DNA of 64,000 bases from an uncultured Gammaproteobacteria bacterium (GCA_964640435.1 CAZXFJ010000002.1:4175-68174); one strand, 5' to 3'. Counted from the first letter of the stretch, positions 6,947-63,999 are shown. The notes: generated by a model from the letters alone, not told the origin. A program made the numbers and translations.

Positions 6947-6965
6947 GAAGAAATAGTATCAGAAT

Positions 6966-7862
6966 TTATTGCATTGTCAATCTCTTTTGATTCTGTTTCC
7001 AATTGTTTTTGCATGAATCATCACAGAAGGCATATCGGGTTTCACTATCCAGACAATTATCGCAGCAAATATAATGTTTGTGGCATACATCATACATGCA
7101 ATTTACATATGATTCAGATGGTATTCCGCAAAAAGTGCATCTTCCAACGATCTCATGCTCAGGTGAATCAGTGTTAAACCCAATAGTTAAACGTTTATCA
7201 AATACATAAAGTTTCCCTTTAAAGTATTTATTTGGATACCTTTCCATAAATGTTTGTATGCCATCTTTAAGTTGGTATACGTCTTTGAAACCATTTTCAA
7301 CTAAAAAGCCTGATGCTTTTTCGCATCTAACTCCACCTGTGCAAACCGTAACTACAGTTTTTCCCTTTAAATGTGCTAAGCGTGGTAGAACTTCTTTAAG
7401 CTGAAAGAAATTTTTCATTCCCGAAGGAACAAATCCATCAAAATATCCTGACGCATATTCGTAATCATTTCTCATATCAACAATATAGAATTCTTTTTTA
7501 GACTCAAACCAATCAAATAGTTCGTCAGCTGTAAGATATTTTCCTGTAACCTTTGTTGGATTCGTATCAACTTTAGCAGTAACAATTTCAGGACGAACTC
7601 TTACACGAAGCTCAGGAAATGATTTCCCATCACTTTCGCTTCTTTTGTAATTAATCTTAGTAAGAAGAGGATTTTTTTCTGTTTCCCGAATATATTCTTC
7701 TGTTGCTTCAACTGTTCCTTCAAGAGTTCCATTGATTCCTTCATGCGCAACGATAATTCTTCCCATAAGGCCAAGCCTTTCGCAAAGTGCTTTTTGTTCA
7801 TCACGAACTTTAGCTGGATTATCAATATTCACATACTTGTAATAAAGTAAAACTTGAAACAT
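6966..7862 (-). CDS. trhO: tRNA uridine(34) hydroxylase TrhO (YceA/UPF0176, rhodanese domain)
   Basis: LYYKY...AHEGINGT N-terminus, rhodanese active-site CTGGVRCEKAS, and a C-terminal Cys-rich tail, as in YceA. Confidence 0.85.
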   Translation of the reverse strand: MFQVLLYYKYVNIDNPAKVRDEQKALCERLGLMGRIIVAHEGINGTLEGTVEATEEYIRETEKNPLLTKINYKRSESDGKSFPELRVRVRPEIVTAKVDTNPTKVTGKYLTADELFDWFESKKEFYIVDMRNDYEYASGYFDGFVPSGMKNFFQLKEVLPRLAHLKGKTVVTVCTGGVRCEKASGFLVENGFKDVYQLKDGIQTFMERYPNKYFKGKLYVFDKRLTIGFNTDSPEHEIVGRCTFCGIPSESYVNCMYDVCHKHYICCDNCLDSETRYAFCDDSCKNNWKQNQKRLTMQ

Positions 7863-7870
7863 AGAGTTTG

Positions 7871-7879
7871 ATTATACCA
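7871..7879 (-). promoter_or_regulatory. extended -10 (TGgTATAAT on minus strand) 8 nt upstream of the trhO ATG; leaderless configuration
   Basis: Plus-strand ATTATACCA at 7871-7879 reverse-complements to TGGTATAAT. An 8-nt spacer lies between it and the ATG complement at 7860-7862. Confidence 0.4.
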
Positions 7880-7921
7880 AATAGGTTCAATCTTGAATAT
7901 TGAATTAGCAAATTAGCTCGT

Positions 7922-7927
7922 TATAAT
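7922..7927 (+). promoter_or_regulatory. -10 box TATAAT 7 nt upstream of the purB ATG; leaderless configuration
   Basis: TATAAT at 7922-7927, then agcaatt, then the ATG at 7935. Confidence 0.35.
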
Positions 7928-7934
7928 AGCAATT

Positions 7935-36090: not shown

Positions 36091-38097
36091 ATGCGTTTTC
36101 GAAGTCTACTCTTTGGTGCGTTTTTTCTATTATTATCGGCAAGTAATGTTTTTGCTGATAACTCCTACATAACAATCGTAAATCCTGTAAGAATTTCAGA
36201 ATATACGAAAGATATAGTAGTCAACCTTAAGACCCAATACGAAGAATTAAATAAAAGAGAACTTCCAGCAACTTGGTTACTGACCTATGAAGTAATTACA
36301 AAAAAAGAAGCAGTTGAAGCAATAAAAAAATTTAATAAAAGACAAGAAGTAGGGGTATTTCTTGAAATAACTCCAGAAATATCTAAGGCTTCTGGGGTTT
36401 CTTACAATGAAACTAATGCTTGGCATAGGGCAACCTCAATTTTTTTATCAGGTTACACACAAAAAGATAGAAGAAAACTGATTGACACATTTTTTTCAGC
36501 ATTCAAAGATAAATTTGGATATTATCCAAAGTCGGTAGGATCCTGGTGGACAGATGCATATTCGCTTTCCTACATGAAAGAAAAATACAATATTACAGGA
36601 ACGCTTGGAGTGTCTGATCAGTATGATTTAGATGGGTATCAGGTTTGGGGTACATTTTGGAGTGTACCATATTACCCATCGAAGGTTAATGCAGGTATGC
36701 CAGCTCAAGCGGCTGAAGATAAAATAAATGTTGTCACCTTTAGATGGGCTGCAAGAGATCCTATTAATGGATACGCGAGCCCTTCTGATAAAGAAGCAAG
36801 TCTATATAGTACACAAGATTATTCTTCATTTGGTTTAGTTAATGATTATTACAATTATCTTATTGAGACATTTTCAATGCAAAACGAATTTAATAAATTT
36901 GGACAAATAACTCTTGGTCTTGAGGCAGATTATGCACCAGAAACATATACATCACAATTCGCAGAGTGGCTAGATATTGTTAAGAATAGAGAAGCTGAAG
37001 GGGAAAAAATAACAAACATGTCAGAGTTCTCTGATTGGTATATTAATGAGTTTAAATCTATTTCCCCACAGCAAATCATAGTATCGGATGATTATTTAGG
37101 GACAGGAAAGAAAGTGTATTGGATAAATAACTCCAGGTATAGAGTGGGTCTAGTCGATGACGGAAAAAATACAGCAATGATTGATTTTCGGACCTATCCT
37201 GAAAATTTTATTGAGCCATTTTATGTTGCACCAAACAAGCAATACAATTTATCTATAAACCTTCCATATGTAATTGATTCGCATATAAACAAAAAAAGTT
37301 CTTGGATTCTATCAAGCGAAAGTATTGAATCAGTTGAAAGCACTTTAGGAAATTTATCTGTGAAGTTAAAAAAAGGAAGCTTATTATTCTCTCCTAATTC
37401 AATTACAGTTCGTGATATTAAAATTCCTATTGCAATTGGCAAGAGCACTTATTTAAAAGTTGAAAAAAATGAAAATCATCAAATTATTTATCCAATCAAA
37501 AACGACCCGATCAGTCCAGATGGAATACTTTATAGCGAATACTCTTTAAGACTCCCTTTTACCATAGAAAGAAGAATAGACCCTATAAAAGTGTTTATTT
37601 ATCCGACTGCAATTATTTTAATCTGCATAATTTCAACCCTATTAATTATTAGATTTAAAAGAAGAGGAGTATTAATTTTGTTTTCATTAGCCATAATTTT
37701 AGTAATATTTTTCGTTGTTCGTGGACAAGCAAAATATTACATAAGTCAAACAGAAATGGATGCGTTATCCGTGCTGAGTGATTTGCCTCAGGGGAGAGTA
37801 CTCGTTTATGAGAAGGATTGTTTAAAATGTACATTTCAAACAATAAGGCCAGCAGCAGCCGCAGGAAGAAAGGGATACGTTGAAAAGTACGGTAAGCAAA
37901 AAATGTTACTTGATCTAAATTTCCAAATAGCTGCAAGTAGTAAGCTTGGCGCAGAGATGTTAAAAGAAAGAAAAGTTAAATATATTTACTTAAGTAAATA
38001 TGAAGACTATATTGAAACACTTCCGTATTTGCCTCAAGATTTAGGCTTAAAGCGAGTATATGAAAATGCTAACGCTCAAATTTGGGAAGTGTTGTAG
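36091..38097 (+). CDS. exported/membrane-anchored hypothetical protein (signal peptide, large extracytoplasmic domain, two C-proximal TM helices, short cytoplasmic tail domain)
   Basis: 668 aa. Signal-peptide-like N-terminus (MRFRSLLFGAFFLLLSASNVFA). TM helices near residues 510-560. Inserted between GT39-like paralogs. Confidence 0.5.
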   Translation: MRFRSLLFGAFFLLLSASNVFADNSYITIVNPVRISEYTKDIVVNLKTQYEELNKRELPATWLLTYEVITKKEAVEAIKKFNKRQEVGVFLEITPEISKASGVSYNETNAWHRATSIFLSGYTQKDRRKLIDTFFSAFKDKFGYYPKSVGSWWTDAYSLSYMKEKYNITGTLGVSDQYDLDGYQVWGTFWSVPYYPSKVNAGMPAQAAEDKINVVTFRWAARDPINGYASPSDKEASLYSTQDYSSFGLVNDYYNYLIETFSMQNEFNKFGQITLGLEADYAPETYTSQFAEWLDIVKNREAEGEKITNMSEFSDWYINEFKSISPQQIIVSDDYLGTGKKVYWINNSRYRVGLVDDGKNTAMIDFRTYPENFIEPFYVAPNKQYNLSINLPYVIDSHINKKSSWILSSESIESVESTLGNLSVKLKKGSLLFSPNSITVRDIKIPIAIGKSTYLKVEKNENHQIIYPIKNDPISPDGILYSEYSLRLPFTIERRIDPIKVFIYPTAIILICIISTLLIIRFKRRGVLILFSLAIILVIFFVVRGQAKYYISQTEMDALSVLSDLPQGRVLVYEKDCLKCTFQTIRPAAAAGRKGYVEKYGKQKMLLDLNFQIAASSKLGAEMLKERKVKYIYLSKYEDYIETLPYLPQDLGLKRVYENANAQIWEVL

Positions 38098-51143: not shown

Positions 51144-52170
51144 CATATCTCCAATTAGTAAGGGTTCAACGTCCGCACACAAAGTTCGCGGTGTGGGTGC
51201 ATACATTAATATGCTCGTTAATAATCTTTCTGAGATAGATACAAAAAACGAATATAAATTTGTAGAAAATAATGAATTTGCTGATGCTGATTTAGTTCAT
51301 TTTCCATACTTTGATCCTTTTTTCCGCACGCTTCCATTTGGTTTGAATAAAAAGTTTGTCGTAACTGTGCATGATTTAACACCGTTGGTTTTTCCTAACC
51401 ATTTCCCTGCAGGAGTAAAAGGCAAAGTTAATTGGCAGTTTCAGAAACTGAATTTAAAAAAAGCTTCAAAGGTAGTCGTTGACTCTAATTGTTCGGCAAA
51501 AGATGTACAGAGAATTGCTGGTGTTGATAAAGATAAAATTGTAACAGTTTATCTTTCAGCCTCAGAAAGTTTTAAAAAATTGATGTCTGGTTCGTGGGAA
51601 AAAGAGACAATCAAGAAGTATAATTTACCAGATAACTTCCTTTTGTATGTGGGCGATGCTACTTGGAATAAAAATTTACCAAGACTTATTGAGGCTGTAA
51701 AAAATACTAACCATAAGATTGTTATGGTAGGAAAAGTTTGGGAAACAGAAATTATAAGTGATAACCCATGGAATGATGATCTAAAACATGTAATGCTTGA
51801 GATAGATAAAAATCCTCAATTTATTAATTTAGGATTTGTTGATGATGATGATGTAGTTAGGCTTTATAATTTAGCAACTGCGCTTGTTATGCCCTCCTTA
51901 TATGAGGGTTTTGGTTTACCCGTACTAGAGGCGATGAAATGTGCTTGTCCGGTAATTTCCTCAAAAGGAGGCTCATTGCCAGAAATTGGTGGGGACGCTG
52001 TTGAGTATATCGATGAATATAATATAGAGAGTATTGTTGAAGCTATAAATCGTGTTATGGCATCAAAAAGCCTACAGGAAAGTTTGTCAAAAAAAGGTCT
52101 TTTGCAAGCAAAAAATTTTACTGTCGAAAAAAGTATTAACGATCTTGTTGCCGTCTATAATTCAATTTAA
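51127..52170 (+). CDS. GT4 (GT-B) glycosyltransferase
   Basis: YEGFGLPVLEAMKCACPVISSKGGSLPEIGGDAVEY GT4 signature. 347 aa. Confidence 0.8.
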   Translation: MKIAVDISPISKGSTSAHKVRGVGAYINMLVNNLSEIDTKNEYKFVENNEFADADLVHFPYFDPFFRTLPFGLNKKFVVTVHDLTPLVFPNHFPAGVKGKVNWQFQKLNLKKASKVVVDSNCSAKDVQRIAGVDKDKIVTVYLSASESFKKLMSGSWEKETIKKYNLPDNFLLYVGDATWNKNLPRLIEAVKNTNHKIVMVGKVWETEIISDNPWNDDLKHVMLEIDKNPQFINLGFVDDDDVVRLYNLATALVMPSLYEGFGLPVLEAMKCACPVISSKGGSLPEIGGDAVEYIDEYNIESIVEAINRVMASKSLQESLSKKGLLQAKNFTVEKSINDLVAVYNSI

Positions 52171-53429
52171 TGAAAAAGGCTTTATCTTTACTCAAAAACA
52201 ATAATTTCCTATCTGCTTCTTTTTGGGTTTTTCTAGGAACTGGTTTTCTAAATTTTGGAAGTTATCTTTACCACTTGATGATGGGAAGATTATTGGGTCC
52301 CTCTTCATATGGTGCTCTAGAGGGTGCAATTTCTGTGTTATATATCCTATTCGTTCCGACCGCAACTTTATCTTTGATAGTTGTGAAATTTGTCTCATCA
52401 TATCTTGGTAAAAAAGATTATAAAAAAATCAATGAAATCTATAATTATCTTTTTAGTAAAGTATTAATTTTTGGAGCAGCTATAACAATAATTTTACTTT
52501 TAATTTCTCCTTTGCTAACTAAGTTTTTGAGATTTCCAAATATTTATATTTCGATATTTATAGCAATCACATTTTTAGTCAATCTGTTCTATATCCTGGA
52601 CAAAAGTGTGGTTCAAGGTTTAACAAAGTTTTTTAAATTCTCATTTCTAAATGTTATTGAAACATCTGTAAAGTTGTTTCTAGGTATTACTCTTGTATAT
52701 TTAGGTTTTTCAGTTGATGGAGCATTTGCAGGAGTTGGAATTGGTTTGCTGGCAGCACTCTTTGTCTCACAAGTATTTGTAAAGCAATCAGTTAAGGTAA
52801 AGCTAAATTTGAAAGCAGATTTTTCTGAAAAAAAAGAATTATGGAAGTTTGCGATCCCAACATTTATTACAACGCTTGCATTAACATCTATTTTTACAAC
52901 AGATATTATTCTGGTTAGACATTTCTTCCATGGCGCAGAGTCAGGATACTATTCCGCGATTTCCGTACTCGGAAAAGTAATATATTTTGCAGCATCTCCA
53001 GTTATTTTTGTCGTCTTTCCTTTGGCATCAGAATTTCATGCAAAAGGTGGAAAATTTGAGAAATTTTTGTACCAAGGAGTGGCACTAGCTGGTTTTGTAT
53101 GTATTTTAATAACATCAATATACTTTTTAGTGCCAAACTTAATGGTTTCACTACTTTTCGGTCCATCTTATCTTCCTATAGTTTCATATCTTGGGATTTT
53201 TGGCGTTTTTATTTCTCTGTATACGATTTGTGCTTTGATCGCCAATTTCTATCTTTCAATTCATAAAACAACATCATCATATTTAGTTCTTTTTGCAGCA
53301 ATATTACAAATAGTATTAATTATTTTATTCCATAACTCATTAACTGAAGTTATTTATGTTTCGATACTTTCTTGTATTGTGCTTCTAATTTCCCTTTTGC
53401 TATACTATCCGCATGCAAAAAGAAGATAA
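52170..53429 (+). CDS. Wzx-like oligosaccharide flippase (MOP superfamily)
   Basis: 419 aa with ~12 TM. LGPSSYGALEGAISVLYI polysaccharide-biosynthesis-protein N-terminus. Confidence 0.7.
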   Translation: MKKALSLLKNNNFLSASFWVFLGTGFLNFGSYLYHLMMGRLLGPSSYGALEGAISVLYILFVPTATLSLIVVKFVSSYLGKKDYKKINEIYNYLFSKVLIFGAAITIILLLISPLLTKFLRFPNIYISIFIAITFLVNLFYILDKSVVQGLTKFFKFSFLNVIETSVKLFLGITLVYLGFSVDGAFAGVGIGLLAALFVSQVFVKQSVKVKLNLKADFSEKKELWKFAIPTFITTLALTSIFTTDIILVRHFFHGAESGYYSAISVLGKVIYFAASPVIFVVFPLASEFHAKGGKFEKFLYQGVALAGFVCILITSIYFLVPNLMVSLLFGPSYLPIVSYLGIFGVFISLYTICALIANFYLSIHKTTSSYLVLFAAILQIVLIILFHNSLTEVIYVSILSCIVLLISLLLYYPHAKRR

Positions 53430-54192
53430 AATCAAACTAATTTCTCTGGTTGTTCCGGCATATAAACAACAAAAAACAATATTAAAAAATGTTGAAGTTT
53501 TAATGGATGAGCTGTCAAAATTGCCTTATAAATCTGAGTTACTGATTGTTATAGATGGAAATCTCGATAATACGTCACAAAAACTTGAAAAATTAAAGAA
53601 AAAAAACATATTTGTATATCAGTATGAAAGGAATGAAGGAAAAGGATATGCAGTTCGCTATGGAGTATTAAGAGCAAAAGGGGATTTAATAGGGTTTATT
53701 GATGCGGGTATGGATCTTGATCCTTCGGAAATATCCTTGATGATTGATACCATGCTATGGAAGGATGCAGATGTCGTTGTAGGAAGCAAGCTACATCCAG
53801 ATTCGAAAGTAAATTATCCATATGTGAGAAAAATTTTGTCTTGGGGTTATAGAACATTCACGCATTTACTTTTTGGCTTTTCAGTTAGAGATACACAAGT
53901 TGGTTTAAAATTTTTTAGGAGGCAAGTTGCTAAAGATGTATTCCCAAGATTACTAGTTAAACGATTTGCATTTGATGTAGAAGTTTTAGCTCTTGCTTAT
54001 GCACTTGGCTATAAGAAAATTTATGAGTCTCCCGTAAAGTTAAGGTTTAGAAATAACAGTACCATTACTTCAAAGAGTTTCTGGAAAGAAATTTCAAATA
54101 TGCTTTGGGATACGGCGGCAGTTTTTTATAGAGTTAGAATTCTAAAATACTATAGAAGAAGTAATAAAGAAAATTGGCTTAATATAGAATGA
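53413..54192 (+). CDS. GT2 polyprenyl-phosphate sugar synthase (DPM1/GtrB/ArnC-like)
   Basis: NEGKGYAVRYG, GFIDAGMDLDP, DTQVGLKFF and AFDVEVLALA. 259 aa. Confidence 0.8.
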   Translation: MQKEDKIKLISLVVPAYKQQKTILKNVEVLMDELSKLPYKSELLIVIDGNLDNTSQKLEKLKKKNIFVYQYERNEGKGYAVRYGVLRAKGDLIGFIDAGMDLDPSEISLMIDTMLWKDADVVVGSKLHPDSKVNYPYVRKILSWGYRTFTHLLFGFSVRDTQVGLKFFRRQVAKDVFPRLLVKRFAFDVEVLALAYALGYKKIYESPVKLRFRNNSTITSKSFWKEISNMLWDTAAVFYRVRILKYYRRSNKENWLNIE

Positions 54193-55289
54193 ACATATTA
54201 ATTTTAAATTGGCGGGATATAAAACACCCGCTTGCTGGTGGTGCCGAAATCTCACTTTTTGAACATGCTAAAAAATGGAAGGAGAGTGGTGCAAATGTTA
54301 TCTGGTTTTCATCTGCCTTTTCATACTACAAAAAGGAGGAGGAGATTGACGGAATCAAGTTTATTAGATCAGGCAGCCAAATAACTGTGCATATAACTGC
54401 TTTTTTTGTCTTTTTGTTTGGAAAACTTGGTAGGCCTGATATTGTTATAGACTCGTTTCATTTTCTTCCATTCTTTTCGCCATTATATATTTTTAAAGCA
54501 AAGAAAATAGCACTTATAAATGAGGTGGCCGGTAAACTTTGGTTTTCAAATATAATTTTTCCTATTTCACTGATTGGATTTTTTCTTGAAAAAATTTCAT
54601 TTATTTTTTATAAAAAAAGTACATTTATTACAGCATCAAAATCAACTGAAAATGACCTTTTAAAAATAGGAATCGATAAGAAGCGGGTTCACACCATTTT
54701 GAATGGAGTAACATTGGTTAAATTAAAGAAGAGAGTAGAAAAAGAAAAAAATCCTACCATTATTTTCCTGGGGAGAATCTCTGATGACAAAGGGATAAAA
54801 GATGCATTTAAAGCATTCGAACAAGTTTATATATCAAATAATAAAGTTGAATTTTTTATAGCAGGCAAAGAAGAAAAAAAGGGTATTATAGATAATTTAA
54901 TAAATTCATTAGATAAATCATGTCGTAGGAACGTTAAATATTTTGGGTTTGTTAGTGAAGAAAAAAAATTTGAACTGTTGCGAAAGGCTTGGATACTTAT
55001 TCATCCTTCAATGAAAGAAGGGTGGGGGTTAAATGTTATAGAGGCTGCATCTCAACAGACTCCGACGGTTGGTTACGATGTAGAGGGTTTAAGAGATTCT
55101 ATCATTGATTCCAAAACTGGTATACTTTCACAACCAAATTCGTTATCACTTGCAGAAGATATTATGAAAATACTAAATGATGACAAATTAAGATACAAAT
55201 TAAGTAAAAATGCACAAGAATGGTCAAAAAATTTTAATTGGGAAAAAAGTGCTACCAAGAGTTGGAAAGTGATAACTTCAGATGAATAG
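54189..55289 (+). CDS. GT4 (GT-B) glycosyltransferase
   Basis: PLAGGAEISLFE N-terminus and EGWGLNVIEAASQQTPTVGYDVEGLRD GT4 signature. Confidence 0.8.
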   Translation: MNILILNWRDIKHPLAGGAEISLFEHAKKWKESGANVIWFSSAFSYYKKEEEIDGIKFIRSGSQITVHITAFFVFLFGKLGRPDIVIDSFHFLPFFSPLYIFKAKKIALINEVAGKLWFSNIIFPISLIGFFLEKISFIFYKKSTFITASKSTENDLLKIGIDKKRVHTILNGVTLVKLKKRVEKEKNPTIIFLGRISDDKGIKDAFKAFEQVYISNNKVEFFIAGKEEKKGIIDNLINSLDKSCRRNVKYFGFVSEEKKFELLRKAWILIHPSMKEGWGLNVIEAASQQTPTVGYDVEGLRDSIIDSKTGILSQPNSLSLAEDIMKILNDDKLRYKLSKNAQEWSKNFNWEKSATKSWKVITSDE

Positions 55290-56133
55290 TATAAAGAATA
55301 AAAAGCATATACTGTCCGTCGATTTTGAGTCCTGGATTTTCTCAAAAAAAATAAATAGTCAGAACTTGTCAATTTCAGATCTTAAAAAGCTTGATGCTGG
55401 TTATTCTCCTAAAGCGTTGAAAACAATGCTAAAAGCTCTCAAAAAAAATAATCAAAAAATTACTTTCTTTGTTGTAAGCAAGCTTGAACAAATATACCCA
55501 GGAATTATTGAAACAATACTTGAGGATGGACATGAAGTGGGATGGCACTCCCATACTCACGTTGTAATGCATGAGCTTGACACTTTAAAAAAAGAACTGG
55601 ATATGGGAAGTGAGATAATTACTAAATACAAGATGAAAGGATTCCAGGCGCCAAATATCGTTTTCATGAAAAAAGGCTATAAATATTTAAAGGACTACGG
55701 TTTCACATATTCTTCATCGATATATGGCAATAGTAATAAGATTTATAAATTCAATGATGTTTTTGAAATACCTGTTACCTCACATAAGAAAGATCAGTCT
55801 CATGCGGAAATCGAATTTCCGACTACGCTTTTAAGAAGCTTACTAAAAAGAGAAGTTCCTTTGGGTTCAAGTTTCTTTTGGGGTTTACTAGGAGGCAAGT
55901 TTTATCATAAGAAGTTATCTTCCTTAAGAAATAAAGGGGAGATAATAAATATGTTTATTCATGACTGGCAAATCTTAACACCAAAATCTGAAATTTATAA
56001 AAAGGATGTTGGATTTTTTTGGAACCCCCTCTTTCTTCCCTACAAAATAAACGTTAGAAAGATGTTTGAAGAACTTGTGTCAAAACATGAATTCACAAGA
56101 TTTGATAAATTTATAAAAGATTTTAATAAGTGA
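55282..56133 (+). CDS. polysaccharide deacetylase-like (CE4) protein
   Basis: DGHEVGWHSHTH (H-S-x-x-H metal motif). 283 aa with a divergent NodB-type arrangement. Confidence 0.55.
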   Translation: MNSIKNKKHILSVDFESWIFSKKINSQNLSISDLKKLDAGYSPKALKTMLKALKKNNQKITFFVVSKLEQIYPGIIETILEDGHEVGWHSHTHVVMHELDTLKKELDMGSEIITKYKMKGFQAPNIVFMKKGYKYLKDYGFTYSSSIYGNSNKIYKFNDVFEIPVTSHKKDQSHAEIEFPTTLLRSLLKREVPLGSSFFWGLLGGKFYHKKLSSLRNKGEIINMFIHDWQILTPKSEIYKKDVGFFWNPLFLPYKINVRKMFEELVSKHEFTRFDKFIKDFNK

Positions 56134-56945
56134 AAAGAAAATTAAGAATTTATTGTATTCTCGCTGACGAAAATTTATTCCATCCTCATTATTTTAATGG
56201 AATAATAAAGGGGCTTAGTAAAAAAGGTTATAAGGTTGTTGGTTTAACACTTGCGCTGGATAAATATAAAAGGGGTTTTGCAAATGCTGTATTTGAACAA
56301 ATATACTTATGGGGCTTATTACCATTTGCATTTATTGCTACAAACTCATTAGTCAGAACCGGTCTCTTTCGGTTAGGTTTATTAAGGCATAAGACTGTTC
56401 GTGGAGTCGCTTTACTACATAATATACCTGTTTACGAAACTTTTAATGTAAATGATAAGACGCACCTCTCTTATCTATCCAAAAAAAATATAGATATCAT
56501 TATTTCTTCAAATGGACAAATTTTTAAGAAAGATTTACTTAAGCTTCCTAAAGTTGCTGCAATAAATAGGCACTCTGCATTGTTACCCTCTTATGGAGGG
56601 GTATTGCCAATCTTTTGGGCTATGAAAAAAAAGGAGAAAAAGCTTGGAACTAGTGTACATTATATGGTTGAAAAGATAGATAAAGGTGATATTCTAGCAC
56701 AATATTCGTTTGAGAACGAAAAGGGGAGTTCACTATTCGAGAACTATATGTACGCATTCAATTTAAGTATTCCTGCGACTATCGATGCAATTGAAAATAT
56801 TTTAAACAAGAAAACGATAAAAAAGTTTAGACACAATAAGAATGAATATTTTTCTTTTCCAGAGAGAAAAATGATAAAAATGTTTAAGAAAACCAACAAG
56901 CCTTTTAGACTGAAAGATGTTATGAAATTTTATACAATATATTAA
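56130..56945 (+). CDS. sugar N-formyltransferase (Fmt/ArnA-FT-like formyl_trans_N domain)
   Basis: NRHSALLPSYGG...HYMVEKIDKGDILAQ matches the N-x-H...SLLP-x-Y-R-G...H...D-x-G catalytic core. GTG start overlapping the upstream stop. Confidence 0.7.
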   Translation: MKRKLRIYCILADENLFHPHYFNGIIKGLSKKGYKVVGLTLALDKYKRGFANAVFEQIYLWGLLPFAFIATNSLVRTGLFRLGLLRHKTVRGVALLHNIPVYETFNVNDKTHLSYLSKKNIDIIISSNGQIFKKDLLKLPKVAAINRHSALLPSYGGVLPIFWAMKKKEKKLGTSVHYMVEKIDKGDILAQYSFENEKGSSLFENYMYAFNLSIPATIDAIENILNKKTIKKFRHNKNEYFSFPERKMIKMFKKTNKPFRLKDVMKFYTIY

Positions 56946-58273
56946 TGCTTAAACTTATCCGTACTAATGTATACCTGTTGTTACTTCTTGCTATACTTGC
57001 TCTAGGCTTGATGCTTAGGACAAATAACTTGTATACCTGGCCAAGACTTGGGGCAACATTTGATGAATACGCTTGGACTTGGCAAGGAATGAATATTATA
57101 CAAAAAGGAGTTCCTATCTCTTGGTCACCACATCCTCAATATAAAAATGCAAAAGATATAATTTATCAACGAACTCATTTCAGAATTGTTACACCATTTT
57201 TAGAACACCCGCCAATATTTGGTTTAGTTGCAGGATCGTTTGCAATTATTAATGGAGCGGACGACATGTATCATTTAACTATCGAAAATATTCGGCCTCT
57301 TGCGGTTATTCTTGGCCTCTTATCAATATTAATGGTGTTTCTCTTAACGTCTGAAGTATATGACAAAAAAACTGGTCTAATCGCCTCACTTATTTACACG
57401 ATTATTCCAACGATTGCTGTAGGTTCGCGAATTGTTCAGAATGAAAACTTTTTTATTCCTTTTTGGCTTCTCTCTCTTTGGCTAATTGTTAAATATATAA
57501 AAAATAAAAGGTCTCTCTATATGTATTTTGCTGCAATAATCTGCGCATTACTTGTTCTTGCAAAGATACCCTGGATTGCCGCTGCTGGATCTATATTTTT
57601 AATCTTTATGTACTTGAAGCAATACAAAAACGCATTTATCTTTTTCATGATTCCTATTATCTCGCTCGTCATGTTTGTCATATACGGCTTCTATTTTGAT
57701 AAAGACGTTTTTATTAATCTATGGGCACTTCAATTAAATCGATACGATATAGCTTTTAATAGCATTTTTGCTCTTTTTACTGAGCCTTTTTTGGCAGATA
57801 GATATACAGTTGATGGGTGGATCTATTTTGGATGGTTTGCCTTCATTTTATTACTCGTATCTGATTTTAAGAAAAATTATCCCGTTATTTTGGGGCTACT
57901 CGCGTACTTTTCAATCTTTATCTTCGCCATCCCCAATGAAGCTGGACATGGTTGGTATAGATATCCGTTTTATCCCTTCCTTGCTATTTCGCTAGCAATT
58001 TTTCTGAAAGAGTATTACAAGAAAAACATTCTACTTACGTTCTTTTTTATTGTTTTTGTTGTAACTTCGCTTTTACAACTTTCATATGGTGTAAGCGTGG
58101 GCTTCTCATTTAAAATTTTTAGAGTTTTTCTACTATCTACAACTCTTATACTTCTCCCTCTGTTCTTTACGAATAAAAATTTAGTTAAACTCTCGCATTT
58201 ATATTGTAATGCAATGCTTGGTGTAATTTTACTGTTAAGTATTTGGTCAATTCTAAACTATAATGAGCAATAA
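56945..58273 (+). CDS. GT-C membrane glycosyltransferase, GT39/GT83 (ArnT/PMT-like)
   Basis: 442 aa, polytopic. First-loop TFDEYAWTWQG acidic DE motif. Confidence 0.6.
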   Translation: MLKLIRTNVYLLLLLAILALGLMLRTNNLYTWPRLGATFDEYAWTWQGMNIIQKGVPISWSPHPQYKNAKDIIYQRTHFRIVTPFLEHPPIFGLVAGSFAIINGADDMYHLTIENIRPLAVILGLLSILMVFLLTSEVYDKKTGLIASLIYTIIPTIAVGSRIVQNENFFIPFWLLSLWLIVKYIKNKRSLYMYFAAIICALLVLAKIPWIAAAGSIFLIFMYLKQYKNAFIFFMIPIISLVMFVIYGFYFDKDVFINLWALQLNRYDIAFNSIFALFTEPFLADRYTVDGWIYFGWFAFILLLVSDFKKNYPVILGLLAYFSIFIFAIPNEAGHGWYRYPFYPFLAISLAIFLKEYYKKNILLTFFFIVFVVTSLLQLSYGVSVGFSFKIFRVFLLSTTLILLPLFFTNKNLVKLSHLYCNAMLGVILLLSIWSILNYNEQ

Positions 58274-59114
58274 TATGAAAATATTAATTACAGGTGGGGA
58301 TGGTCAATTGGCAAAATCTATAGCTGGATTTTATCCAGATGAAAATCTTGTTCTTGTAAGTAAAAAAGATCTTGATGTTACTGATAGGGATGGTGTTTTT
58401 CAAAAAATATCTGAACAAAAACCTGATATAGTATTTCATTTTGCATCACTTACTCGAGGGGATGAATGCACTAAAAATCCTGAGCTGGCGCATAAAATAA
58501 ATGTTGTGGGCACGGAAAATGTTGTAAAGGCAGTAAAGAGGTTAGGTATTGAACTGGTTTTTGTAAGTACTAACGAAGTTTTTGACGGGGAGAAAAAAGA
58601 TCCTTATACTGAAGATGATTCACCAAATCCAATAACCGTTGTTGGTGAAACGAAATATGATGCTGAAAAGAAAATTAGGGAAAATTTGGAAAAGTACTAC
58701 ATTATTAGAACTTCCTGGCTATTTAGTAAATGGAGTAACAATTTTCTCCAGGCCATATTTAAAAAAGCAAAAGATAAGAAAAGGGTGGAGCTTGTCGTAG
58801 ATGAAGTAAGTTCACCTACATATTCAATAGATCTTGCAAAAGCTATTAAAGAGCTTGTTGATACAGGTAAATATGGGATATATAACCTGGCAAATTCGGG
58901 ACAAGCATCACGCCTTGAGTTTGCAAAAAAAGCATTTGAGTTAAAAGGACTATCTGATGTTGAAATTAATCCTTTACCTTTAGCCTCTTTTAATAGGTTA
59001 TCAAAGCCACCTCTTTTTACTCCGTTGTCTATTAAGAAGGCAAACGGCTTAGGTATTAATATCAGAGACTGGGAAAGTGCATTAGCTGAATTTCTTTCAG
59101 AGAACAATATATGA
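58263..59114 (+). CDS. dTDP-4-dehydrorhamnose reductase-like (RmlD-type) nucleotide-sugar reductase
   Basis: ILITGGDGQLAK Rossmann motif. Catalytic block TKYDAEKK (Y-x3-K) and STNEVFDG. The alternative start at 58275 gives MKILITGG. Confidence 0.7.
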   Translation: MSNNMKILITGGDGQLAKSIAGFYPDENLVLVSKKDLDVTDRDGVFQKISEQKPDIVFHFASLTRGDECTKNPELAHKINVVGTENVVKAVKRLGIELVFVSTNEVFDGEKKDPYTEDDSPNPITVVGETKYDAEKKIRENLEKYYIIRTSWLFSKWSNNFLQAIFKKAKDKKRVELVVDEVSSPTYSIDLAKAIKELVDTGKYGIYNLANSGQASRLEFAKKAFELKGLSDVEINPLPLASFNRLSKPPLFTPLSIKKANGLGINIRDWESALAEFLSENNI

Positions 59115-59956
59115 AAAAAAATAAATTAATTTCTATTGTTATTCCTACTCGAAATTCTGCAATAGTTTTGGAGAATTGTCTCAAAAGCATAAAAGAGCAA
59201 AATTATAAACCCGTAGAAGTGATTATTGCTGATGGTAGATCCACTGATAATGTTCGTGAACTTGCTGAAAAATATAATTGTCGATATTTTAAGTACAAAA
59301 CACACTTACGTGAAGTCTATTTTGATGCGCCTCACAAAATTAATTTTGGTGCGTCCAAAGCCAGGGGAGATTATATATATTGGTTAGATGCTGATATGGA
59401 ATTAACCCCCAATCTTCTCGCAGAAGCGGTAAGGCTTTGTGAAGAGGGGGCTGGTGCTGTAATTTTACCTGAAGATTCATTCGGAGAAGGGATTTGGGCA
59501 AAAGCGAAACAACTTGAAAGAAGATGTTATTGGGGTGATGATTCTGTAGAATCTCCAAGATTTTTCAAAAAAAGTGTCTGGGAGGAGATTGGTGGATTTG
59601 ATTTATCCCTTGGTGCTGGAGGAAATGACTGGGATCTACATATACAAGTTCTTGAACATGGATACAAAGTTGCTCGAACAAAAAATATTGTACGACATAA
59701 TGAAGGAAATTTAAATCTAATAAAACTTTTTAAAAAAAGATTTATGTATGGTAGAGAAGCAGTTAAGTATATTGGTAAAAGACCCAAAGCGAGTTTTGCC
59801 AACTTCTTTCCGATAAGGTATTCCTATATTAAAAACTGGAGAAGTTTCGCCAAGCAGCCAATAACTACTGGCGCTTTTGTAGTAATGCGTACGGTTGAGT
59901 ATACTGGAGGATTTTTGGGAATTGTTACTAATTCAATGGAGAAGAAGAAAAAATAA
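59111..59956 (+). CDS. GT2 glycosyltransferase
   Basis: ISIVIPTRNSA...IIADGRSTDN and LDADMELTP. 281 aa. Confidence 0.75.
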   Translation: MKKNKLISIVIPTRNSAIVLENCLKSIKEQNYKPVEVIIADGRSTDNVRELAEKYNCRYFKYKTHLREVYFDAPHKINFGASKARGDYIYWLDADMELTPNLLAEAVRLCEEGAGAVILPEDSFGEGIWAKAKQLERRCYWGDDSVESPRFFKKSVWEEIGGFDLSLGAGGNDWDLHIQVLEHGYKVARTKNIVRHNEGNLNLIKLFKKRFMYGREAVKYIGKRPKASFANFFPIRYSYIKNWRSFAKQPITTGAFVVMRTVEYTGGFLGIVTNSMEKKKK

Positions 59957-60055: not shown

Positions 60056-61057
60056 ATGATAAAGAAAACAAAAAAAACTATAAAATCGAGAGGTAAAACA
60101 GCGCTAGTTTTAGGTGCCGGAGGTTTTATAGGTAACCACTTAGTAAAAAGGCTTAAATCCGAAGGGTACTTTGTTAGAGGAGCTGATATCAGAAAACCAG
60201 AATACGGAAAAAGTCTTGCCGATGAATTTATGATTGTTGATCTTCGAAGGCAAAAAAGCTTTGAGAAGGTTATGGATAAGCCATTTGATGAGGTATATCA
60301 GCTTGCAGCAGATATGGGTGGGGCTGGTTATATTTTCACTGGTGAACATGATGCAGATGTAATGCATAATTCTGCATTAATTAATCTAAATGCTCTTCAG
60401 TATGGACAAAAAGCAGGAATAAGGAAAATATTTTTCTCCTCATCTGCATGTATATATCCTGAACACAATCAAGTTGATCCTGATAATCCAAACTGCGAAG
60501 AATCTTCAGCTTACCCAGCAAATCCGGATAGTGAATATGGTTGGGAGAAGTTGTTTAGCGAGAGAATGTTTCTTGCATATCATAGAAATTATGGCATGAA
60601 TATTAGAATAGCAAGATTCCATAATATTTTTGGTCCAGAGGGAGCTTGGAATAATGGTAAAGAAAAGTCACCAGCAGCAATATGCAGGAAAATTGCGCAA
60701 GCACCTGATGGTGGAACAATTGAGATGTGGGGTGACGGCGAACAAACACGCACATACCTATATATAGATGAGTGCCTGGAAGGTGTAAGACGATTAATGG
60801 ACTCAGACTTTACAGGACCAGTTAACTTAGGTTCAGATGAAATGGTAAGTCTTAACGAGCTTGCTGAAATGGTAATGAAGATTGCAGGCAAAAAAGTTAA
60901 AATTAAACACATTAAGGGGCCCTTAGGTGTGAGAGGTAGAACTTCTGATAATAAGCTAATTAAAAAGAAATTAGGTTGGAAACCTAAGCAACCACTTGTT
61001 GACGGTATGACAAAGACATATGAGTGGATAAATGAACAAGTTAGGAAAGCAAAATAA
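60056..61057 (+). CDS. GDP-mannose 3,5-epimerase-like NAD-dependent nucleotide-sugar epimerase
   Basis: LAADMGGAGYI, FSSSACIYPE, RFHNIFGP, SPAAICRK, MWGDGEQTR, YIDECLEGV and GSDEMVSLNE reproduce the block order of plant GME. Confidence 0.8.
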   Translation: MIKKTKKTIKSRGKTALVLGAGGFIGNHLVKRLKSEGYFVRGADIRKPEYGKSLADEFMIVDLRRQKSFEKVMDKPFDEVYQLAADMGGAGYIFTGEHDADVMHNSALINLNALQYGQKAGIRKIFFSSSACIYPEHNQVDPDNPNCEESSAYPANPDSEYGWEKLFSERMFLAYHRNYGMNIRIARFHNIFGPEGAWNNGKEKSPAAICRKIAQAPDGGTIEMWGDGEQTRTYLYIDECLEGVRRLMDSDFTGPVNLGSDEMVSLNELAEMVMKIAGKKVKIKHIKGPLGVRGRTSDNKLIKKKLGWKPKQPLVDGMTKTYEWINEQVRKAK

Positions 61058-61059
61058 AT

Positions 61060-61872
61060 ATGATTAAAAATTTGGTAATTGGTTCTGATGGATTTATTGG
61101 TAAACCTTTTTGTGAGTATCTATCACAAAAAGGGGAAGAAGTTATTCGTTTTGACATTAAGCGAAACAGTAAGGAAGATGGTAGAAGCTATAAATTTGAT
61201 CTTAAAAAAATAGACAGGGTATATTTTTTAGCTTGGGATGTTGGGGGTTCAAAATACTTATACGATAAAAAACTTCAAATGGGGCAACTTAAGTGGAACC
61301 TCGACTTAATGCGTAATGTGTTTGACGCAATAGAGAAAGAGAAAAAAGATTTCCTTTTTGTTTCTAGTCAATTGGCTGAGGAATGTGACACAGTATACGG
61401 CGTAACTAAAAGACTTGGCGAAGTATGGACTAGTGAACTTGGAGGAGTTTGTGTTAGGGTTTGGAATGCGTATGGTTATATGGAGCCAAACGATGTTAAA
61501 AGTCATGTGATATCCGATTTTGTTCATCAAGCTCTCACCACAAAAAAAATAAAAATGATGACAAAAGGAGAGGAGTCAAGACAGTTTACTCATATAAATG
61601 ATCTCTCAAAATCATTTCATATGGCACTTTCTTTGAAAAATCGTACTCGAACAGTATTTGACGCAAGTAGCTACGAGTGGGCTAGGATTATAGATATTGC
61701 AAATATAATAGCAGAATTAACAGGTGCAAAAGTAATTCAAGGAAAGAGTAATGGGCATGATCCATTACCTTCAAAAAACATGGGTAGAGTTCCCGGATGG
61801 CTTCCCGGTATCACCCTGCGCGATGGAATAAGCGCGATGATTGATCAGGCCAAAAGTATAAATAATGGCTAG
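61060..61872 (+). CDS. short SDR-family NAD(P)-dependent epimerase/reductase
   Basis: IGSDGFIG glycine-rich loop and YGVTK (Y-x3-K). 270 aa. Confidence 0.55.
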   Translation: MIKNLVIGSDGFIGKPFCEYLSQKGEEVIRFDIKRNSKEDGRSYKFDLKKIDRVYFLAWDVGGSKYLYDKKLQMGQLKWNLDLMRNVFDAIEKEKKDFLFVSSQLAEECDTVYGVTKRLGEVWTSELGGVCVRVWNAYGYMEPNDVKSHVISDFVHQALTTKKIKMMTKGEESRQFTHINDLSKSFHMALSLKNRTRTVFDASSYEWARIIDIANIIAELTGAKVIQGKSNGHDPLPSKNMGRVPGWLPGITLRDGISAMIDQAKSINNG

Positions 61873-63103
61873 CAAAGTTAATAACCCTCTTTCAAAGAAT
61901 TCAACTATCCTCTTCTTAACATTTTCAAGATGGGTTGATGGAAAGCGTCTTCCTACAACAGGTAGTCTTGATCCCTTAAGAGATTATTTGGTTCCTAAAA
62001 TTAAAAAACTAGTGATTATTGACCAGGTTCATCCAGGGAGTGATAGGGTAATGCCAATAATTGAGGAGTATAAAGATCAAAGTGGAAAGGTTAAGCTTCA
62101 CAAGTCTTCATGGGTAGTATATTTATTAAAACCATTCTTGCCTTTAAATGGAACTCAGAAGACCCAAATTTCATATAAGTTAAGAGATTTTCTTTCAGTA
62201 ATAGATTGGTCTTTCCGAGATAAAACCAAATTCGATTACTATATCTGCCTTGAAAGTATTAATGCCATAGCAGCTATTTTGATGAGAAAAATGGGAAGAG
62301 TAAAAAAAGTAGTTTATTATGTTTCTGATTACTCCCCTAAAAGATATCCAAGTAAATGGTTTAATTACGTATATCTAATGCTCGATCGATTTGCAGCAAT
62401 GCATTCTGATTACATATGGGATGTATCACCAGCAATGCAGAAAGCACGTATTAGCATAGGACTTGATCCTAAAAAATCTGCTCCAGTGATCGATGTTCCT
62501 AATGGTTTATATCCTGCACAGATTGAAGCAAATCCTATTTCTAAAATTGATAAACACTCTTTTATATATATGGGTACAGTCGGAGCTGAGAATGGACCTG
62601 ATATTGCTATAAAAGCTTTGGCAATTGTTAGAAAAAAATTTAAAGATGCAAAACTTCATATAATTGGAGGTACAGAAAAAGATTTTGAGTGGCTTGCAAA
62701 ACTTGTAAAAAAATTAAAACTTGAAAAAGCAGTAATTTCACATGGTTTTGTTGAAGATGGACTTGAAATGTCTAGAATCATAAGATCTTGTGCGATAGGA
62801 GTTGCTCCGTATCGTGATATTCCTGGTTCAATAAGGCACTATGCAGATGCTGGTAAAATTAGAGCATATTGTGCATCAGGTTTGCCAGTCGTAAGTTCCC
62901 ATGTTCCTCCGCTTGGCTTAGAAGTTGCAAAAAAGGGAGCAGCAATCGTTGTTAAAGATACTCCGGAGGAATTTGCAGATGCAATAATGGATATTTTTTC
63001 AAATAATTCTTTGTATTTAAAATTAAGGAAAAATGCTATTCTTTTTGGTAAAAATAACACATGGAATAATACATTTAAAAATGCATTCTCAAAAATGAAA
63101 TGA
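61865..63103 (+). CDS. GT-B glycosyltransferase (GT4-like)
   Basis: 412 aa. C-terminal Rossmann domain with IYMGTVGAENG...HIIGGTE and VAPY...ASGLPVV. TGA stop. Confidence 0.6.
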   Translation: MASKVNNPLSKNSTILFLTFSRWVDGKRLPTTGSLDPLRDYLVPKIKKLVIIDQVHPGSDRVMPIIEEYKDQSGKVKLHKSSWVVYLLKPFLPLNGTQKTQISYKLRDFLSVIDWSFRDKTKFDYYICLESINAIAAILMRKMGRVKKVVYYVSDYSPKRYPSKWFNYVYLMLDRFAAMHSDYIWDVSPAMQKARISIGLDPKKSAPVIDVPNGLYPAQIEANPISKIDKHSFIYMGTVGAENGPDIAIKALAIVRKKFKDAKLHIIGGTEKDFEWLAKLVKKLKLEKAVISHGFVEDGLEMSRIIRSCAIGVAPYRDIPGSIRHYADAGKIRAYCASGLPVVSSHVPPLGLEVAKKGAAIVVKDTPEEFADAIMDIFSNNSLYLKLRKNAILFGKNNTWNNTFKNAFSKMK

Positions 63104-63999
63104 AGAAATCTATCAAGAAGCAACAAGGCGGACACGATTTTAACTATGAAGAAGTTATTATGGGTGTGTTTCAGGGGAGAAAAAAAGGTTTTGCAAAGGA
63201 GATTTACCAGAAAAAACCTGAACTTCGAAGAGTTGTGGATATGGTCAAAATTAAAAAAGGAAGATTACTTGATATTGGTTGTGGAGGAGGGTATGTTACA
63301 GAGTGTCTTCCAAAATATTACCCAAAAGTAAAAATATATGGTTGTGATGTAAGTGCCACAGCAATAAAATATGCGAAGAAGTTTGGAACAGGCAAAGTAT
63401 CATACAAAGTTATGCAAAAAAAGCTTCCATACCCCTCCAATTATTTTGACGCAATAACTTGTCTTGATGTTCTGGAGCATATTCCAGACGTTGATTTTTT
63501 TATTCGTGAGGTAAGAAGAGTATTGAAAAAAGATGGTGTATTTTTCGGTGCAATTCCATGTGAAGGACAACCATTTACATTTAGTTGGTTTTTTAGAAAA
63601 GTAGGTTTTTGGGGTGATCTAACATATAAACATGTTGGGCACATTCATCCCGAGTTTACTCATAAGTACGTCATGGATCTTTTCACAAAAAAAGGTTTTG
63701 AAGTTGTTGATAAAAGATATGCAGAGAGACTTCCCGTACAATTTCTCCGATATTTCCAATTCATGATTCCTAAAGAAATTTTCGAACTTTTCGTAGGTGA
63801 GAAAAAGGCTTCTGCATATTACGACAGAAGCATTGCTGTGAGTAAAGTTGTAAAAAAAGATCCTTTTATGTTTTTGAGAAATTCATGTTATAAAATTCGC
63901 GACTACACAAAAATAATTGATGATATTGATGCCGAGAAATTTAAAAATTCCTCTTTTGGGGCTTGGAAAATAAACTTACTCGTATCTGTTAAAAAATAA
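63100..63999 (+). CDS. class I SAM-dependent methyltransferase
   Basis: LDIGCGGGYVT motif I, YGCDVS and LDVLEHIPD. 299 aa. Confidence 0.8.
   Translation: MKKSIKKQQGGHDFNYEEVIMGVFQGRKKGFAKEIYQKKPELRRVVDMVKIKKGRLLDIGCGGGYVTECLPKYYPKVKIYGCDVSATAIKYAKKFGTGKVSYKVMQKKLPYPSNYFDAITCLDVLEHIPDVDFFIREVRRVLKKDGVFFGAIPCEGQPFTFSWFFRKVGFWGDLTYKHVGHIHPEFTHKYVMDLFTKKGFEVVDKRYAERLPVQFLRYFQFMIPKEIFELFVGEKKASAYYDRSIAVSKVVKKDPFMFLRNSCYKIRDYTKIIDDIDAEKFKNSSFGAWKINLLVSVKK

Follow-up and report, generated by a model that had tools for sequence, protein, structure and literature searches.

A coupled deacylase and formyltransferase as a candidate amino-sugar tailoring cassette in a bacterial glycan island

A 64,000-nt stretch of DNA (GCA_964640435.1, CAZXFJ010000002.1:4175-68174; hereafter the window), filed under an uncultured Gammaproteobacteria bacterium, holds a polysaccharide-deacetylase-like gene of the CE4 family, 55282, that overlaps a formyltransferase gene, 56130, within a long run of glycosyltransferase genes. 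The locus raises the question of why a deacylase and a formyltransferase should be neighbours there, and on which sugar they might act. The original prediction answered that they belong to a module like the aminoarabinose (Arn) pathway, in which an amino sugar is formylated, loaded onto a lipid carrier and deformylated again. We propose instead, with moderate confidence, that the CE4 protein and the formyltransferase (FT) form a two-enzyme amino-sugar tailoring cassette that exchanges an acetyl for a formyl group on a hexosamine, which is probably linked to polyprenyl phosphate. The two genes, the second of which starts 4 nt before the end of the first, are the following.

55282..56133, + strand: CE4/NodB-fold deacylase, 283 aa (Pfam Polysacc_deac_1, 50 bits), first gene of the cassette
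56130..56945, + strand: stand-alone FT, 271 aa, GTG start (Pfam Formyl_trans_N, 57 bits), second gene of the cassette

FT carried the motif N-R-H-S-A-L-L-P-S-Y-G-G, as predicted, and a second motif, H-Y-M-x4-D-K-G-D-I-L-A-Q, whose spacer had been predicted to be five residues long and was found to be four. The protein matched PF00551 at 56.6 bits (cutoff 26.1), and its relatives formed a sharply bounded family of 250-290 aa with PF00551 as the sole domain; an exhaustive profile search gave 1,291 representative clusters of this family at E<=1e-30. In an alignment of 26 family members N146, H148 and D184 and the LLP-loop residues L152 and P153 were invariant. The first three are the counterparts of the Asn-His-Asp with which ArnA-FT and Fmt catalyse their reactions, so that FT has the triad and the SLLP loop of the Formyl_trans_N superfamily and, judged by its residues, an intact active site. 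The AlphaFold2 model (pLDDT 94.6) matched the Fmt N-domain and ArnA-FT at ~1e-16 (probability 1.00) and sugar N-formyltransferases such as WbkC at ~1e-13 when searched with Foldseek. A sequence search against the PDB gave 1e-16 for Fmt, 1e-11 for ArnA, and values from 1e-7 for WbkC to 1e-3 for WlaRD. In a rough neighbour-joining tree without bootstraps, the FT family members all clustered in a single clade; the nearest characterised outgroup was E. coli ArnA-FT, and Fmt lay further out.

The simplest explanation of the locus would be housekeeping, with 56130 as the Met-tRNA formyltransferase Fmt, 55282 as a peptidoglycan deacetylase and their position in the island incidental. The best single PDB match of FT was the N-domain of B. 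anthracis Fmt (1e-16), and the best profile matches of the CE4 protein included named peptidoglycan deacetylases (3QBU, 5O6Y). However, a Pfam search found no Formyl_trans_C domain (PF02911) in FT, and residues 226-271 of the model folded into short helices and not into an OB-like domain. FT reached 71.5 bits on TIGR00460, where the cutoff is 201.5, and the canonical 306-aa Fmt proteins, which do have PF02911, were only E~1e-5 relatives. With no C-terminal domain, a sub-threshold TIGR00460 score and a clade separate from Fmt, the identification of FT as Fmt was rejected as far as the 64-kb window allows, and the assumption in the original prediction that FT has another role stood. FT was also a single-domain protein that scored 68.6 bits on the ArnA model NF005998 (cutoff 777).

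The CE4 protein matched PF01522 at 50.2 bits (cutoff 23.1), with a sub-threshold match to DUF3473 and the sequence HSHTH at residues 89-93. Within its family D14, E16, H84, H89, H93 and H227 were invariant or nearly so; H89, H93 and H227 were invariant in both of two alignments, and D14 and E16 were invariant in one and conserved to >=90% in the other. The CE4/NodB fold thus has its Asp motif, its H-x3-H metal motif and its catalytic His, and the roles of the individual residues are putative. The nearest structures to the AlphaFold2 model (pLDDT 90.6) were those of the NodB1.2 group, namely 3RXZ, 3QBU, 1Z7A and PuuE (3CL6). No signal peptide or transmembrane (TM) helix was found in the sequence (maximum 19-residue hydropathy 1.07), and the protein is predicted to be cytoplasmic. 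The family was a tight clade found only in the Candidate Phyla Radiation (CPR), with ~50 clusters at >=44% identity, many of them on the same contigs as FT homologues; beyond this clade the similarity fell abruptly to DUF3473/PEP-CTERM-type deacetylases at 25%. An extracellular peptidoglycan deacetylase was rejected as the identity of the CE4 protein because of the missing export signal, without which it could not reach mature peptidoglycan, and because of its strict, one-to-one co-occurrence with FT.

Other genomes showed which unit is conserved. A scan of one genome per species yielded 34 loci, for which partners were counted from Pfam and phmmer results. The loci came from CPR, Phycisphaerales, Bacteroidota (Aquimarina, Chitinophaga, Mucilaginibacter, Parabacteroides), Clostridia, Solirubrobacterales, Deferribacterales, Omnitrophota, Alteromonas, SAR86, Legionellales, Desulfarculales and Binataceae. 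A deacylase abutted FT, was one gene away from it or was fused to it in 30 of the 34, in these arrangements.

YdjC as the gene just upstream of FT, on the same strand and mostly overlapping it: 19 of 34 loci
YdjC and FT in one open reading frame (ORF): 3 of 34 loci (L027:9026-10777, L032:8894-10792, L035:620-2383)
YdjC-like gene downstream: 1 of 34 loci (L026)
CE4 upstream: 5 of 34 loci, all CPR-like
DUF3473-type CE4 directly downstream of FT: 2 of 34 loci (L038, L045)
No partner visible: 4 of 34 loci, one of them cut by the contig end (L041)

All arrangements taken together, YdjC was the partner in 23 of the 34 loci, and in the more distant members of the FT family a YdjC-family protein took the place of CE4 upstream. 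The CE4-FT pair is the CPR form of a cassette that is widespread and in which YdjC is the usual partner of FT. Deacylase and FT are obligately coupled, and the conserved unit is the pair. This coupling, added to the features of the two proteins given above, leaves the housekeeping explanation effectively refuted.

Fusions were also found among the 147 top library representatives, 15 of which were 570-640 aa long. Six of these 15 long proteins were tested with Pfam, and five were YdjC-FT fusions (P0326, P0346, P0364, P0374 and P0400), while the sixth joined a membrane GT2 to FT (P0399, 642 aa). YdjC-FT fusions occurred in Solirubrobacterales, Binataceae and metagenomes. Among shorter proteins, P0367 was a truncated YdjC-FT and P0439 (455 aa) a GNAT acetyltransferase joined to FT, a hint that in some lineages re-acylation may go either way, with an acetyl or a formyl group.

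In the tree, FTs with an upstream CE4 were monophyletic and sister to the CPR FTs partnered with YdjC, and FTs with a downstream CE4 formed a separate clade. A NodB-fold deacylase therefore replaced YdjC at least twice, and such non-orthologous displacement is strong evidence that the selected requirement is for a deacylase, of whichever family, that works with this FT. The two downstream cases, from SAR86 and Legionellales (L038:9779-11424 and L045:9764-11448), consisted of FT followed by a DUF3473/PEP-CTERM-type CE4 with the motif D-V-E-D-W; here a NodB deacylase was recruited independently and in the opposite gene order.

Within CPR the pair also kept together when its surroundings changed. 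The closest relative, L004/L012, in which FT was 56% identical, had the same gene set as the window, and yet in L004 CE4-FT had moved as a unit to a place after the second GT2 and before two short-chain dehydrogenase/reductase (SDR) genes, away from the GT-C gene. In L006 (Levybacteria) the pair lay amid genes for a methyltransferase, a DegT protein, a PglD-like acetyltransferase and the heptose pathway, with no PMT_2 gene within 10 kb. It was intact in the unrelated contexts of L006, L008 and L010, and the lineages included Saccharimonadales and other CPR.

The genes around the pair in the window, which bear on the carrier and on the comparison with Arn, were as follows.

52170..53429, + strand: MOP/Wzx-type flippase (Pfam Polysacc_synt_3, 74 bits)
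53413..54192, + strand: short GT2, 259 aa, without a TM helix (Pfam Glycos_transf_2, 74 bits)
54189..55289, + strand: GT4 (Leloir-type) glycosyltransferase (Pfam Glycos_transf_1, 120 bits)
56945..58273, + strand: GT-C-fold polytopic glycosyltransferase, 442 aa, ~8 TM helices (Pfam PMT_2, 52 bits, and PMT, 24 bits)
58263..59114, + strand: RmlD, dTDP-4-dehydrorhamnose reductase (equivalog TIGR01214, 232 bits, cutoff 224)
59111..59956, + strand: second GT2, Leloir, PglI/TuaG-like
60056..61872, + strand: two SDR epimerase/reductase genes, 333 aa and 270 aa (Pfam Epimerase, 150 and 67 bits)
61865..63999, + strand: GT4 and S-adenosylmethionine-dependent methyltransferase

The five ORFs at 53413, 54189, 55282, 56130 and 56945 had been placed and classed correctly, and the RmlD-like reductase and further SDRs expected downstream were recovered as the equivalog and the two Epimerase proteins. 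The flippase also preceded the GT2 in L001-L005, and the GT4 54189 also lay beside the GT2 in L004. The GT-C protein 56945 had the motif F-D-E-Y in the first loop after TM1. The SDR at 60056 scored 46.6 bits against the C-terminal domain of ArnA, and its best family was GDP-fucose synthase (112 bits). The cluster continues beyond the end of the window; in L001 a hexapeptide acyltransferase and a 748-aa protein come next.

The order of reactions given in the original prediction would have FT formylate a nucleotide-linked amino sugar, the GT2 load it, CE4 or YdjC remove the formyl group, and the GT-C protein transfer the free-amine sugar to an acceptor other than lipid A, giving a cationic surface. 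All four enzyme classes are in the window, and in other phyla the pair has ArnC-like GT2s, GT-C proteins and one ArnE-like protein as neighbours. Of the characterised enzymes, ArnA-FT is the outgroup closest to the FT family, and the FT-then-CE4 order of L038 and L045 mirrors arnA-arnD. ArnD, too, has the NodB fold, and according to a published survey its nearest solved structures are the same NodB1.2 set, 3RXZ, 3QBU and 1Z7A, as those of the CE4 protein (PMC10967932).

The likeness did not extend further. Each protein of the E. coli K-12 arn operon was compared by phmmer (E<=10) with every window ORF of >=80 aa. ArnC matched four window GT2s and the FT domain of ArnA matched 56130 (46 bits), whereas ArnB, ArnD, ArnT, ArnE and ArnF had no match. 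The curated NCBIfam models for ArnA, ArnC and Fmt all stayed far below their cutoffs on the window proteins. The resemblance to Arn is therefore one of enzyme class and not of orthology, and of the Arn-like module that had been predicted the four classes are supported and homology to Arn is not. The GT2 53413 had been called DPM1/ArnC-like. It is a GT2, but it lacks the traits of ArnC (~320 aa, C-terminal TM helices), it aligned only in part to the ArnC model (39 bits, cutoff 529), and at 33 bits it ranked fourth among the island GT2s against E. coli ArnC, the best being 18381 (65 bits). The GT-C protein 56945 was of the PMT_2 type without a phmmer match to ArnT, and no window ORF resembled ArnE or ArnF.

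The CE4 protein fared no better as ArnD. No NCBIfam ArnD match was found on it at E<=0.01, a PDB search with the profile of its family (E<=1) turned up no chain of ArnD, and Salmonella ArnD (8T0J) was only the 22nd structural neighbour of its model (Foldseek TMq 0.43). Since ArnD ranks 22nd and the nearest NodB1.2 set is common to both, the two are distant cousins and not one family, and the CE4 protein as an ArnD orthologue was rejected.

The absence of an ArnB/DegT-type aminotransferase from the 64-kb window, stated in the original prediction, was confirmed by phmmer with ArnB (E<=10) and by Pfam on nearly all ORFs. A DegT-like gene lay within 10 kb in 4 of the 34 loci, never adjacent, and was absent from the other 30, so that the Arn-like order leaves the free amino sugar without a source. 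Were deacetylation to supply the amine, deformylation would call for a second deacylase, and only one is conserved. The characterised members of the partner families are de-N-acetylases of GlcNAc/GalNAc-type substrates. The usual partner, YdjC, is known for de-N-acetylation (HpnK, ChbG, NaxD) and not for deformylation (PMC9431647). Because the constant partner is of the de-N-acetylase type, often fused at the N-terminus of FT, and no aminotransferase accompanies it, deacetylation followed by formylation is favoured over the Arn order, and we consider the transient formylation first predicted to be clearly unlikely.

Which carrier holds the sugar was harder to judge from the window itself, where the + strand from 9460 to the window end (63999) is one co-directional train of 43 genes over ~55 kb. 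Between 9460 and 58273 it encodes 18 polytopic membrane proteins that are GT-C-like (members of PMT_2, YfhO and PTPS_related, and others with 7-12 TM helices and no annotation), and the island holds 10 GT2s, 4 GT4s and 2 MOP flippases. With 18 of 43 genes GT-C-like and 10 GT2s, nearly every island gene has a GT-C or GT2 neighbour, and the test of adjacency must therefore come from other genomes. The position of a GT2 and a GT-C gene beside CE4-FT was at chance level and was rejected as evidence; the specific adjacency on which the original prediction drew was not upheld in L004/L012 either, where the pair sits away from the GT-C gene.

In unrelated phyla the association was found. In L019, L020, L024, L029, L031 and L037, full-length ArnC/PgfS-type GT2s lay at most a few genes from the pair, with 113-166 bits against E. 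coli ArnC, and the four tested with the PgfS model (L019, L029, L031, L037) scored 200-327 bits. Large polytopic membrane proteins usually accompanied these GT2s (not in L024), and seven more loci had weaker GT2 matches. Over all 34 loci, 14 had an ArnC-like GT2, a strong match in 7 of them. Such GT2 and GT-C genes are not local background in the non-CPR loci. The association of the pair with GT2s of the undecaprenyl phosphate (Und-P) type and GT-C proteins is thus frequent, and the expectation that FT belongs with them was right statistically across phyla, though not universally.

One example was a compact five-gene block in Alteromonas sp. KUL42 (L031:6586-11882, NZ_BJKK01000005.1) that encodes a YfhO/PgfM-like GT-C protein, YdjC, FT, a 113-aa protein with four TM helices and a weak ArnE match, and an ArnC/PgfS-like GT2, embedded in a cluster of the O-antigen/capsule type. 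As a cultured bacterium, it is a good experimental entry point.

The two enzymes might instead act before any lipid is involved, by turning UDP-HexNAc into UDP-HexNFo, after which Leloir GT2 and GT4 enzymes would build a repeat unit and a Wzx-type flippase would export it, with the GT-C protein and the DPM1-like GT2 unrelated to the pair. CE4 and FT are both predicted to be soluble; all characterised sugar N-formyltransferases that we know of, with WbkC, WbtJ, WlaRD and PseJ among the PDB matches, act on NDP-sugars; and GT4s, another GT2 and a flippase of the Wzx type are present in the window cluster. Moreover, the pair in L006 lies among nucleotide-sugar genes, and GT-C adjacency is expected by chance in the window island. 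However, ArnC/PgfS-type Und-P GT2s and polytopic proteins are strongly enriched beside the pair in unrelated phyla, where they are rare, and a membrane GT2-FT fusion exists. The YdjC partners scored best against HpnK and then ChbG, all below threshold (HpnK cutoff 232.6), and so are nearer to an enzyme with a lipid-bound substrate than to the soluble ChbG; HpnK deacetylates lipid-bound GlcNAc. Known YdjC and CE4 deacetylases in comparable pipelines (NaxD, ArnD) also act on lipid-linked sugars. Tailoring of the nucleotide sugar is a serious though less probable rival explanation; a lipid-linked substrate is favoured by the ArnC-type GT2s and GT-C proteins beside the pair, by the fusion of a membrane GT2 to FT and by the likeness of the partners to HpnK.

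For the acetyl-to-formyl exchange on a lipid-linked sugar, the following route may be drawn. A GT2 of the DPM1/GtrB type would load an N-acetyl-hexosamine onto polyprenyl phosphate; the candidate synthase of the sub-cluster is 53413, which is DPM1/PpgS-like and aligned over its full length, though weakly, to the PpgS model (40 bits, cutoff 370) and to AglJ. The metal-dependent deacylase would then strip the N-acetyl group on the cytoplasmic side, as the chemistry of its family suggests, and FT, with its catalytic residues intact, would use N10-formyl-tetrahydrofolate to formylate the freed amine. The polyprenyl-phosphate-linked N-formyl-hexosamine would finally be flipped and transferred by a GT-C protein to a surface glycopolymer or protein. 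The net result would be an acetyl-to-formyl swap for which no aminotransferase is needed. The order of the reactions, the carrier (lipid or nucleotide) and the identity of the sugar are what we infer here. 2-N-formyl hexosamine derivatives do occur naturally, as GalNFoA of P. aeruginosa O6 (PMC4773840, PMC11706664).

Several points weigh against this route. The order of the reactions cannot be read from sequence, and the FT-then-deacylase gene order of L038, L045 and E. coli arnA-arnD runs opposite to it. ArnA itself fuses non-consecutive steps, and a fusion does not prove that two reactions are consecutive. The GT2 53413 is weakly ArnC/PpgS-like, and three better ArnC matches lie elsewhere in the island. 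The GT2 of P0399 is PgaC/NodC/HpnI-like, which leaves room for a lipid or polymer substrate other than a polyprenyl-phosphate sugar; the protein was accordingly rejected as an ArnC-FT fusion. An insertion at FT residues 50-81 had a hydropathy of 1.0-2.1 in CPR members, which is only moderately hydrophobic, was not kept in YdjC-partnered members and gave no clear sign of membrane binding. Finally, the pair stood without a nearby GT2 or GT-C gene in the Aquimarina loci (L023, L039, L042, L043) and in some others, and because the Aquimarina pairs stand alone, the link to a polyprenyl-phosphate carrier is frequent and not universal.

The acceptor depends on the host. The nearest named relatives of PurB, encoded near the start of the window, were from Patescibacteria (67% identity) and Roizman- and Daviesbacteria, and the relatives of FT and CE4 came from Woese-, Levy- and Gottesmanbacteria and Saccharimonadales. 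Because of these three sets of relatives the host is assigned, by sequence likeness, to the Patescibacteria/CPR. The CPR group is taken to be without lipid A, and from what is known of Patescibacteria the same would hold for this host; since it is a CPR bacterium, the acceptor would be something other than lipid A. The taxonomic name of the window has parallels: L012, L013 and L016 (CAYVKP010000001.1, CAZMSF010000006.1 and CAYTXH010000010.1) are likewise titled 'uncultured Gammaproteobacteria bacterium' and yet bear the CPR-type cluster, with the gene set of the window and FTs 38-56% identical, and their labels look wrong. For a CPR bacterium with a small genome, extracytoplasmic glycosyltransferases are extremely concentrated in the island.

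The GC content of the window was ~0.33. Further features of the window were the following.

511-584, - strand: tRNA-Glu(CTC), which overlaps the 3' end of a mechanically called 156-aa ORF (88-558, + strand, no Pfam match) that is probably spurious or shorter than listed
5795-9422: purK (ATP-grasp/PurK_C) and purB (adenylosuccinate lyase)
36091-38097: 668-aa protein that matches DUF3863 weakly and has just 2 TM helices
46081-49513: DUF5667 protein (172 aa), then 370-aa and 602-aa polytopic proteins without a Pfam match

The DUF5667, 370-aa, 602-aa and 668-aa proteins are uncharacterised members of the island; a gene identical to the 370-aa one in L001 has the precomputed annotation PF26314 MptA_B_family. 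De novo purine synthesis genes are often missing from CPR. The presence of purK and purB suggests that the host makes purines de novo and hence may hold a pool of folate and N10-formyl-tetrahydrofolate.

A wider claim, which we put forward tentatively and would not be surprised to see fail, is that the cassette, as YdjC-FT or as CE4-FT in CPR, is a pathway, widespread and as yet undescribed, that works at the membrane to turn N-acetyl-hexosamine on polyprenyl phosphate into its N-formyl form and so decorates surface glycans, O-antigens or capsules through GT-C proteins in CPR, Bacteroidota, Planctomycetota, Actinomycetota and marine Proteobacteria. A literature search in an incomplete library found no paper that names YdjC together with a formyltransferase, which is absence of evidence only. 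Other searches of that library turned up reviews of lipid A in general and papers that mention GalNFoA of P. aeruginosa O6, but no account of a sugar cassette made up of a deacetylase and a formyltransferase.

If this wider claim is true, FT would be the first formyltransferase that acts on a lipid-linked sugar, and the pair the first defined route to 2-N-formyl hexosamines. If the proposed exchange is right, the cassette would explain how, with no aminotransferase involved, a 2-acetamido sugar becomes a 2-formamido sugar. Extracytoplasmic glycosylation of the Und-P/GT-C kind (Gtr, Arn, YfhO) would gain a new tailoring step, and ~1,300 clusters annotated as 'methionyl-tRNA formyltransferase' or 'formyltransferase family protein' would belong to a distinct enzyme that tailors sugars together with an obligate deacetylase. 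Host innate immunity recognises N-formyl groups, which alter surface charge less than free amines do. Because N-formyl groups and free amines differ in these effects, the choice between the swap and the cationic, Arn-like outcome matters for predicting the phenotype. The cassette also offers a concrete, testable way into the surface-glycan islands of CPR, which are very large and have hardly been studied, and with cultured carriers such as Alteromonas sp. KUL42, Chitinophaga deserti and Aquimarina spp. experiments are feasible.

Among known systems, Arn (PmrHFIJKLM) of E. coli and Salmonella likewise brings together in one locus an N10-formyl-tetrahydrofolate-dependent formyltransferase of the Fmt/ArnA type, a deacylase with the NodB fold, a GT2 that uses polyprenyl phosphate and a GT-C protein. 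Unlike Arn, the window has neither ArnB nor a UDP-GlcA decarboxylase fused to FT, and the deacylase partner in most lineages is YdjC. The reactions would probably run in the reverse order, the formyl group would be permanent and not transient, and the host probably lacks lipid A. The sugar N-formyltransferases WbkC, WbtJ, WlaRD, VioF and PseJ have their fold and catalytic Asn-His-Asp triad in common with 56130, although enzymes of the WbkC/WlaRD type are more distant from it than Fmt and ArnA are by their PDB E-values. NDP-amino-sugar formyltransferases depend on a DegT-type aminotransferase, and the deacylase-FT cassette has none.

Several known systems use a deacetylase without a formyltransferase. 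FlmF2/FlmK and Lgm rely on a GT2 to make Und-P-HexNAc, on a deacetylase of the YdjC family to free its amine and on a GT-C protein to transfer the sugar. The GalNAc deacetylase NaxD belongs to such a known pipeline from GT2 through deacetylase to GT-C (PMC9431647). The YdjC, GT2 and GT-C composition of Francisella FlmF2/NaxD/FlmK, Bordetella LgmA/LgmC/LgmB and A. baumannii NaxD recurs beside FT in L019, L020, L029, L031 and L037. The NaxD and Lgm systems have no formyltransferase, and the free amine goes to lipid A; in contrast, the pair described here has FT obligatorily coupled or fused to the deacetylase, which in CPR is a CE4 protein. In mycobacterial PpgS (Rv3631)/Rv3779, a short DPM1-like GT2 makes polyprenyl-phosphate-GalNAc, which is deacetylated and transferred by a GT-C protein to arabinogalactan. 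That system shares with the window a short DPM1-like GT2, to which 53413 aligns weakly, and an acceptor other than lipid A, and it lacks FT. The hopanoid enzymes HpnI and HpnK, a GT2 and a YdjC protein that act on N-acetylglucosaminyl-bacteriohopanetetrol, recall the P0399 GT2, which is HpnI-like, and the YdjC partners, which score best on HpnK; the Hpn pathway has no FT, and no hopanoid genes were seen near the pair.

The Gtr, CsbB-YfhO and Pgf systems consist of a GtrB/PgfS-type Und-P GT2 and a YfhO/PgfM-like GT-C protein, with or without a small flippase. The same set surrounds the pair in L031, and the window island is rich in the YfhO, PMT_2 and PTPS_related GT-C proteins of this type. 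To our knowledge the known systems of this kind transfer unmodified Glc or GlcNAc, and we know of none in which a lipid-linked sugar is tailored by a deacetylase and a formyltransferase. By analogy, the pair would represent an uncharacterised form of Und-P/GT-C glycosylation in which the sugar is tailored on its carrier, as it is in the Arn and NaxD systems.

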